Notes under the pieces: generated by a model
Databases searched by the model: none
What the model was told of the DNA's origin: nothing
What the model saw: the letters and a program-made list of their open reading frames with translations, nothing else
NCBI GenBank assembly: GCA_951406725.2
Contig: OX597824.1
Span: forward strand, 69,068,001 to 69,132,000
Direction: 5' to 3'
DNA from: Octopus vulgaris
Lineage: Eukaryota
DNA length: 64,000 nt
Made by a program: the position numbers and the translations under genes
Shown: in pieces, positions 47,191-49,369 of the stretch
Numbering within the stretch: the stretch's first letter is position 1
Layout: every line of letters starts with the position of its first letter

Positions 47191-47921
47191 CGGTTTTTTT
47201 GACTATTTATTAAAATTTTATGTATTGATTAAGACTTTCCTTGTTTGTTTTGCAAAATAGTGGTTTTGTCTCTAATAATATTTTATATATATATATATAT
47301 ATATATATATATATATATATATATATATATATGAGTATACATCCATATAGATATAAAGATATATATATATATACCTGGAAATGGATGCGTGACGTTCAAT
47401 AAGATAATAATATAAATAATATATATGTGTGTGTGTATATATGAATATATATACATGTGTATATACATGCATATATACACTCTCTATTTCTGTCACACAC
47501 ACGCACGCATACACACATAAAACATACATATATACATATATATATATATATATATATATATATAAGTATACATCCATATAAATATAAAGATATATATATA
47601 TATACACGTGTATATATATATATATTTATATATATATATATATATATATTAATTAATAAGGGTGAGAGAATTATATACTAATTTAATAGTATATCTATTC
47701 AACACCAAGTGGCCTAGTGCTCCGAGAAACCTGGATTATTATAATATTTTATAATATATTATAATATTTTTACAAAATAAATATAAGAGAGTGGTCACTA
47801 TATGGCTCACTCTAGCACCAGTTAATCCAAAAGGTTTCAACCACAAAAATACATGTTTCCCATGAAAGTCAGTACGATTGTTAGCTCACACGGACAGGGC
47901 AAATAAAAAATAACAAAAATA

Positions 47922-48017
47922 CAGATTATTTTGGGACAATTGTTTCGCTATTAATGAATTAAATGTAATTTTACTTACAAAAAAATCCACTTGTAGCTCG
48001 TCAGCCAAAACTATCTG
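47922..48017 (-). ncRNA. Type-I hammerhead ribozyme with long stem-II loop (array copy 1)
   Basis: Reverse complement of the motif at 49139-49233. Confidence 0.75.
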
Positions 48018-49138
48018 GATGAAATCTACTCAATCACACGCCAGATTTTACCATAACGATAAATACGCGTGTGGTTCAATTGATTACATCCGACGTTATA
48101 ATTCAAATGCCCCAACTAACAGCGCGCCAAACTTTCACGGAAAACAAAGACTGCATTTAGAAATAAATGTAGCATAATTATAATTAATTAATAAGGGTGA
48201 GAGAATTAGATACTAATTTAATAGTATATCTATTCAACACCAAGTGGCCTAGTGCTCGAGAAACCTGGATTATTATAATATTTTATAATATATTATAATA
48301 TTTTTACAAAATAAATATAAGAGAGTGGTCACTTATGGCTCACTCTATTAATCCAAAAGGTTTCAACCACAAAATACATGTCCCATGAAAGTCAGTACGA
48401 TTGTTAGTTCACACGGACAGGGCAAATAAAAATAACAAAAATACGATTATTTTGGGATAATTGTTTCTATTAATGAATTAAATGTAATTTTACTTACAAA
48501 AAATCCACTTGTAGCTCGTCAAAAACTATCTGGATGAAATCTACTTCACACGCCAGATTTTACCATAAAGATAAATACGCGTGTGGTTCAATTGATTACA
48601 TCCGACGTTATAATTCAAATGCCCCAACTAACAGCGCGCCAAACTTTCACGGAAAACAAAGACTAAGTAAAATTACATTTAATTCATTAATAGCGAAACA
48701 ATTGTCCCAAAATAATCTGTATTTTTGTTATTTTTTATTTGCCCTGTCCGTGTGAGCTAACAATCGTACTGAGGGAAACATGTATTTTTGTGGTTGAAAC
48801 CTTTTGGATTAACTGGTGCTAGAGTGAGCCATATAGTGACCACTCTCTTATATTTATTTTGTAAAAATATTATAATATATTATAAAATATTATAATAATC
48901 CAGGTTTCTCGAGCACTAGGCCATTGGTGTTGAATAGATATACTATTAAATTAGTATCTAATTCTCTCACCCTTATTAATTAATTATAATTATGCTACAT
49001 TTATTTCTAAATGCAGTCTTTGTTTTCCGTGAAAGTTTGGCGCGCTGTTATATTTGAATTATAACGTCGGATTTAATCAATTGAACCACACGCGTATTTA
49101 TCGTTATAAAATCTGGCGTGTGATTGATAGATTTCATC

Positions 49139-49233
49139 CAGATAGTTTTGGCTGACGAGCTACAAGTGGATTTTTTGTAAGTAAAATTACATTTAATTCA
49201 TTAATAGCGAAACAATTGTCCCAAAATAATCTG
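49139..49233 (+). ncRNA. Type-I hammerhead ribozyme with long stem-II loop (array copy 4)
   Basis: cagatagttttgg-CTGACGA-gcta-(42 nt)-tagc-GAAA-caattg-TC-ccaaaataatctg; predicted cleavage after C49220. Confidence 0.75.
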
Positions 49234-49369
49234 TATTTTTGTTATTTTTATTTGCCCTGTCCGTGTGAACTAACAATCGTACTGACTTTCATGGGAAACA
49301 TGTATTTTTGTGGTTGAAACCTTTTGATTAACGGTGCTATATATAGTGACCACTCTCTTATATTTATAT

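Follow-up and report, generated by a model that had tools for sequence, protein, structure and literature searches.

The array at 47649..49368 of the window, a stretch of 64,000 nucleotides of Octopus vulgaris DNA, is one insertion with two converging arms, one made of a full plus a partial unit and the other of two partial units of a 535-nt repeat. The unit is a new animal non-LTR retrozyme, which is not a Penelope element but inserts in the manner of one. In every two-arm insertion of this family with both starts classifiable, one arm began at a fixed site A and the other at a second fixed site B. We propose that two-sided priming by a Penelope-like reverse transcriptase (RT), from the cut strands of a (TA)n target on one RNA, probably a circle, made both arms, and we give this reading a probability of about 0.62.

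The pieces of the array were defined by a BLAST search of 47649-48183 against the 64-kb window, which gave four matches. The resulting layout, with the basis of each feature, is as follows.

47592..47648, no strand: left target flank, (TA)n-rich (sequence)
47649..48183, minus strand, which is the ribozyme strand: copy 1, a full 535-nt unit and the first unit of the left arm, starting at fixed site A (BLAST)
47649..47773, minus strand: Penelope-type "tail", from site A (unit 531-535/1) to site B (unit 126) (arm-start counts)
47922..48017, minus strand: intact type I hammerhead of copy 1, with the core at 48004-47998, GAAA at 47946-47943 and the predicted cut between 47935 and 47934 (motif, fold)
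48184..48664, minus strand: copy 2, unit 1-504, the end of the left arm, with the ribozyme core broken by deletions (BLAST)
48664..48664, no strand: meeting point of the two converging arms, with a 1-nt overlap (BLAST)
48664..48983, plus strand: copy 3, unit 329-1, the inner end of the right arm, without the CUGACGA half of the ribozyme (BLAST)
48984..49368, plus strand: copy 4, unit 535-~126, the right arm from fixed site B (BLAST)
49139..49233, plus strand: intact type I hammerhead of copy 4, with the core from 49152 and the predicted cut after 49220 (motif, fold)
49369..49583, no strand: right flank, (TA)n (sequence)

The order forward, forward, reverse, reverse given in an earlier note on this DNA was borne out by the BLAST search, and (TA)n borders were indeed present on both sides. 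The array also lacked a substantial ORF, as the note had stated: the only ATG ORFs inside it encode 52 and 73 aa, and the longest within one unit 52 aa. The same note had described four near-identical copies, but a full 535-bp unit is present in copy 1 alone, copies 2-4 being partial. Copies 2, 3 and 4 lack 23, 9 and 23 bases, respectively, whereas across the family 149 of 191 pieces had no deletion and 175 of 191 had at most one, which places this locus among the most deletion-rich. Either errors in the consensus of a palindrome or genuine decay may account for these small deletions. The suspicion that the array is an assembly artefact does not hold for its layout, which recurs as two arms in 51 of 73 sampled regions, and survives only for the small deletions. 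As assembled, the locus cannot release a monomer because neither strand has two adjacent intact ribozymes, contrary to the excision that had been suggested for it; adjacent intact ribozymes predicted to allow such release were found elsewhere, in 21 of the 73 sampled regions.

The flank of the array forms a tandem duplication of ~436 bp (window 47041-47560 and 49496-49691; 84 nt at 95% and 196 nt at 93%), of which the first copy houses a short ribozyme element and the second the array. The matching empty site has ~7 TA repeats versus ~40 at the array plus ~200 nt of TA-rich flank, so that the (TA)n tract may expand in the course of insertion or later. Elsewhere in the window, 30732-31467 holds tandem copies, with a period of ~184-217, of another dispersed-looking repeat.

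We then analyzed the predicted ribozyme. On the minus strand of the unit it runs in the order stem I, CUGACGA, stem II, GAAA, palindromic stem III and GUC. As the earlier note had it, copies 1 and 4 are the ones with a complete ribozyme: CUGACGA, GAAA, CAAUUG and GUC are all intact there and in no other copy. C3 lies at 48004 on the minus strand for copy 1 and at 49152 on the plus strand for copy 4. Stem I, also in line with the note, is long with a small mismatch (7 bp, the mismatch, then 4-5 bp, giving an 11-13-bp stem). The term "minimal" does not fit this hammerhead, in which stem II is long (4+8+5 bp) and the build is that of a canonical type I. A search with the Rfam hammerhead models returned no match in the window at the gathering score, and in 47600-49420 there was none at E<=10 either; the ribozyme call therefore rests on motif, fold and covariation. 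Folding predicted a highly self-paired monomer in which the ribozyme is left free to fold. The whole unit gave z=-8.25 on the ribozyme strand, the ribozyme alone gave z=-5.2 in copy 4 versus -0.9 in the broken copy 2, and in the circular fold prediction stems I and II reached p of about 0.9-1.0, with stem III not predicted.

Covariation was in line with this structure. Across 17 distinct ribozymes, stem I was paired in 76 of 85 cells, versus 34-46 when slid, and related ribozymes showed compensatory swaps (G-C/C-G and A-U/G-C). For the rod structure, 28 predicted pairs were kept by two-sided changes in three divergent relatives versus 11-14 in slid controls, in a test that tilts toward the structure because the structure was taken from copy 1; an older copy (L064) looked garbled and gave no support to the fold. 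A loose ribozyme pattern had 6,104 matches in the genome versus 24 for the control, and these take in subfamilies at 92-97%, older relatives at 70-76% and other families.

To place the unit in its genome, we searched the 2.8-Gb assembly (227 contigs). The 22-mer at the site B terminus had 2,733 exact matches (control, 0) and the 20-mer of the ribozyme core 218 (reversed control, 0). Of 1,261 candidates, the top 40 were scored; they were 99-100% identical and lay on many contigs. Arrays are dispersed, with a tandem period of 535 bp and 1 to 13 units each, and the unit has a GC content of 172/535 (32%). The repeat family is young, genome-wide, non-coding and non-autonomous. The link to retrozymes and Penelope elements drawn in the earlier note is upheld by a dispersed young family whose unit has a type I hammerhead and a tail of the Penelope type, by its inverted arms and its insertion into (TA)n, and further by intact Penelope-like elements in the same genome. 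An LTR-like layout was seen in none of the 73 regions.

The architecture of the insertions was determined in a first sample of 100 loci, picked on the ribozyme side and merged into 73 regions. The 51 two-arm regions were all converging, and the remaining 22 had one arm. Of 60 arms starting at site A, 45 began at unit 531, and of 58 starting at site B, 45 began at unit 126, the two sites being ~130 nt apart. TA-rich flank bordered 116 of 117 classified arm starts, and a target-site duplication would be masked by such (TA)n flanks. All 46 two-arm insertions in which both starts could be classified were A+B, and neither A+A nor B+B occurred; the other 5 of the 51 were left outside this count for an unclassifiable arm. 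The array at 47649..49368 follows the same rule, its left arm starting from A and its right arm from B. A second sample, of 20 loci chosen by site B rather than by the ribozyme, agreed: 8 of 8 two-arm loci were A+B, including one with an internal rearrangement. In all 54 of these insertions, one arm and one alone carried the tail.

In contrast to these fixed starts, the inner ends were scattered over the unit, with 5 of 118 falling within 276-296, around the predicted cut, versus 4.6 expected. Arms measured from 0.1 to more than 10 units. Choosing the first sample on the ribozyme side inflates the share of arms that pass the predicted cut, but when the shorter arm alone is counted, it still passes the cut in 28 of 46 insertions. 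In 39 of the 51 two-arm insertions, the arms overlapped by 0-6 nt at their junction. A linear cleaved monomer was rejected as the template, since arms begin at A or B and not at the cut, and run through the cut.

Both arms of an insertion appear to come from one template. At eight haplotype markers, opposite arms agreed in 64 of 64 comparisons and tandem units in 187 of 229, versus 2,467 of 20,888 between insertions. In the second sample, distances were 0.43% between arms, 0.20% between tandem units and 2.9% between insertions. At one locus (L214), the five pieces on the two arms are identical to one another and 6-8% from copy 1, and at another (L213) seven pieces show one difference. Among 94 locus-private substitutions at places that both arms cover, 15 were on both arms (3 of these from one short hairpin locus) and 79 on one arm only, as expected for later mutation, though this is not proof of it.

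Some long arrays were patterned. A 12-piece arm (L092, G000:C28:10731500-10741400) has a 4-unit higher-order period, and in a 14-piece array (L068, G000:C3:179746800-179756700) G8 is changed in five of ten full units, which mostly alternate with intact ones. In the long array of L211 a variant is scattered among the units. The alternation on C3 fits either a dimer circle cut out by every second ribozyme or a later duplication, and the patterns on C28, on C3 and in L211 count against a simple monomer circle.

We also examined the Penelope-like elements of this genome. At least three young families have long open ORFs (781, ~980 and 775 aa), each with two termini. The 781-aa family (L138:1618-5321, L134, L136) matches RVT_1 and GIY-YIG and has a 40-nt tail; a pattern search of its terminal repeat revealed no ribozyme. 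In this family, a 479-aa ORF with no clear Pfam family overlaps the start of the RT-GIY-YIG ORF. The ~980-aa family (L261:1796-4750 (P0001), L262, L263) has ORFs of 980-1,091 aa and a ~116-nt tail. Its ORF had no Pfam match and no PDB sequence match, and it was recognized from RT and nuclease motifs by eye together with a weak BLASTP match (E 0.007). Long asparagine-rich stretches run through these ORFs, as described for a rotifer in the available text of PMC3846280. The pLTR hammerhead of the ~980-aa family has the same build as that of the unit, including the long stem II. The 775-aa family (L296-L325; G000:C1:27841626-27850521) is very young, has a 32-nt tail and carries tandem full-length copies 4,271 bp apart, and its ribozyme core reads CCGAAGA in every matched copy. 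Readable inverted pairs were A+B in 2 of 2, 4 of 4 and 4 of 4 cases for the 781-, ~980- and 775-aa families, respectively; a fifth inverted pair of the ~980-aa family has a short B arm.

The unit does not serve as the pLTR in any of these three autonomous families. It resembles the pLTR of the ~980-aa family over 44-47 nt at 77-82% (E 6e-5 to 0.03) and matches no pLTR of the three autonomous families beyond this length, and a profile of the 535-nt family found no match in the pLTRs of the autonomous families examined. A search with three Penelope-like proteins for an RT/GIY-YIG ORF gave no match in the window, and beside a few other loci it found only scattered fragments.

The window also contains a short element with a type I hammerhead (47125-47286, plus strand), which has a short stem II, a ~77-nt tail and (TA)n flanks. 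It has 1,148 candidates in the genome, the best copies being 99-100% identical. Its two-arm insertions were A+B in 9 of 9 cases, and its termini resemble those of the 535-nt unit, to which it is otherwise unrelated. Unlike the unit, this element with its 162-nt core begins at one constant 5' position and was not seen in tandem, in loci picked as full-length.

On these grounds we propose the following course of events. Tandem genomic units would be transcribed on the ribozyme strand, and the hammerheads would release 535-nt monomers that are ligated into circles, by analogy with known retrozymes; the weak palindromic stem III may need dimers for cleavage. A trans-acting RT-GIY-YIG protein of the Penelope type would nick both (TA)n strands, with one cDNA primed at A and the other at B, the two start points being ~130 nt apart in our counts. 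Each cDNA would continue through the ribozyme site over 0.1 to more than 10 units, as the arms do, and stop at random, and the two ends would be joined mostly via the 0-6 nt overlaps found at the junctions. According to the accessible text of PMC11167929, a Penelope protein in vitro both cleaves and extends the two strands, and it begins copying at two internal positions, one at either boundary of the tail. In the same source, ribozyme cleavage is not needed, uncut RNA is the main substrate, and the two start sites are used alike on both strands. The strict A+B pairing of the 535-nt family needs an asymmetry, whereas the strands did not differ in that assay. Two-sided priming of the Penelope type, whichever RNA served as template, is in our view highly probable.

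The nature of the template is less certain, and we favor a circle over a linear multimer. The same two-sided priming could have acted on a linear multimer that was transcribed from a donor array and left uncut, with a ribozyme that is slow, blocked or incidental. This would agree with the preference for uncut RNA in vitro (PMC11167929, in the text available), with the cleavage of only 1 of 9 Xenopus retrozyme dimers given in the accessible part of bioRxiv 10.64898/2026.07.22.740005, with the higher-order patterns in long arrays and with the tandem copies of the 775-aa family, which lie 4,271 bp apart though its ribozyme reads CCGAAGA. However, units identical on both arms in L213, L214 and L216 carry variants absent from sister arrays, no fixed inner end marks an RNA 5' end, arrays from linear donors could only shrink, and covariation shows that the ribozyme fold is kept. 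We regard the linear multimer as rather unlikely, although it is the strongest of the alternatives. Short Penelope-type insertions that were later expanded by unequal exchange, with arms homogenized by gene conversion, appear improbable: periodic variants in the 12-14-piece arrays on C28 and C3 speak for such a route, which is proposed in the discussion of bioRxiv 10.64898/2026.07.22.740005 as far as available, but the majority of arms comprise 1-3 pieces joined by exact 535-to-1 junctions, the last one being a randomly truncated unit, at a divergence of 1%, and a sub-unit arm cannot yield a 535-to-1 junction by local exchange.

The inverted half could also derive from fold-back self-priming of one cDNA, or reflect fold-back reads or mis-assembly. 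Self-priming has been proposed for inverted Penelope structures (PMC3846280, in the available text), inner ends are equal at four loci, and the deletion-rich array at 47649..49368 has its right arm contained in its left. Nevertheless, in 16 of 45 A+B insertions, with a rearranged locus set aside, each arm has a stretch that the other lacks, so that neither can be a fold-back copy there. Moreover, inner ends lay within 40 nt of each other in 8 of 45 versus 6.8 expected, and the arms begin at different fixed sites with unique flank on each side. This origin is very improbable.

In L1 twin priming, primers come from both target strands and the inverted halves are joined by microhomology; the position of the second primer is variable, and there is no overlap between the arms. 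The 535-nt insertions likewise suggest two primers, with inverted halves and microhomology joining, but their second site is fixed and their arms overlap in template coordinates. Classical L1 twin priming was not supported, the A arm stopping near B in 5 of 45 insertions versus 3.4 expected.

For hints of RNA, we compared four sequencing runs, all as contigs and with their RNA status a guess; none of the runs containing the unit is recorded as RNA. In run X1, the unit forms one unbranched 565-nt contig that closes on itself, a joint that a tandem array would give as well. Such a single closed contig is unlike DNA of thousands of varied copies, which should be mixed like run X15, and is a weak hint of RNA. 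In run X2, 43 places were changed, of which 29 were T>C and 9 were A>G. Of its T>C/A>G sites 18 were checked: 15 are absent from 149-192 genomic pieces, 12 are absent from X15, and two are subfamily markers. These changes look like A-to-I editing on both strands, as from fold-back transcripts, which again is a weak hint given that the run type is a guess. As a possible imprint of editing in genomic copies, T>C made up 13 of 66 shared versus 10 of 128 singleton variants in a post hoc count.

The unit shares many properties with animal non-LTR retrozymes of coral, mussel and axolotl, which in the available texts of PMC7229834 and bioRxiv 10.64898/2026.07.22.740005 are likewise non-coding, low-GC tandem units with one type I hammerhead each, a predicted self-paired circle, dispersed monomers to multimers, and Penelope-like elements alongside. 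Its 535 nt exceed the 150-450 nt given in the former and lie within the 51-972 nt of the latter. These retrozyme accounts, as far as available, describe neither converging arms nor a pair of fixed start sites nor targeting of (TA)n; the word "inverted" occurs 0 times in the text of PMC7229834 at hand. Animal retrozymes carry no motif that points to their mobilizer, according to the available part of PMC7761336, whereas the ends of the 535-nt unit do. The minimal hammerheads of Penelope and Terminon elements in that source have a similarly short palindromic stem III, but their helices are reduced, unlike the long stable stem II and the stem I with an internal loop of the unit.

Endonuclease-containing Penelope-like elements, as portrayed in the accessible parts of PMC8557442, PMC3846280 and PMC11167929, likewise form tandem and inverted 5'-truncated copies with a tail at one end, AT-rich or (TA)n targets, a type I hammerhead and two internal start sites. 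The unit differs from them in having no ORF and a tail of ~130 nt instead of the usual 30-40. Their tail is "optional" or "often at one end" in the printed accounts available, while it lies on exactly one arm in the 54 insertions analyzed here. Non-LTR retrozymes, their proposed mobilization by Penelope elements and proposed rolling-circle copying, the tail, inverted copies and two internal start sites had been described before, and what is new here is the strict pairing of start site A with start site B in two-arm insertions. We found no description of the 535-nt family or of strict A+B pairing in the literature searched, although supplements, Repbase/Dfam or the 2014 Penelope-hammerhead paper may hold one.

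The cited papers leave open how Penelope-like elements make tandem and inverted insertions, and whether new insertions are copied from the circles of animal retrozymes. The family is useful in this respect: it is young, it has ~2,700 pieces of a 535-nt unit, its two start sites are mapped to the base, and candidate intact enzymes are present in the genome. It also offers a strict, countable rule, namely one arm per start site with the same haplotype. Somewhat short of even odds, in our estimate, is the wider reading that the arrays record Penelope integration on a circle, with one complex priming both strands at two fixed sites and rolling round, and with the C3 array as the print of a dimer. 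If true, this circle-priming reading would account at once for the tandem copies, the inverted copy and the tail on one side, and it would cover the retrozymes and the autonomous elements of the same genome alike; the C3 array, in which G8-dead units mostly alternate with intact ones, would then be the imprint left by a dimer circle of 1,070 nt.
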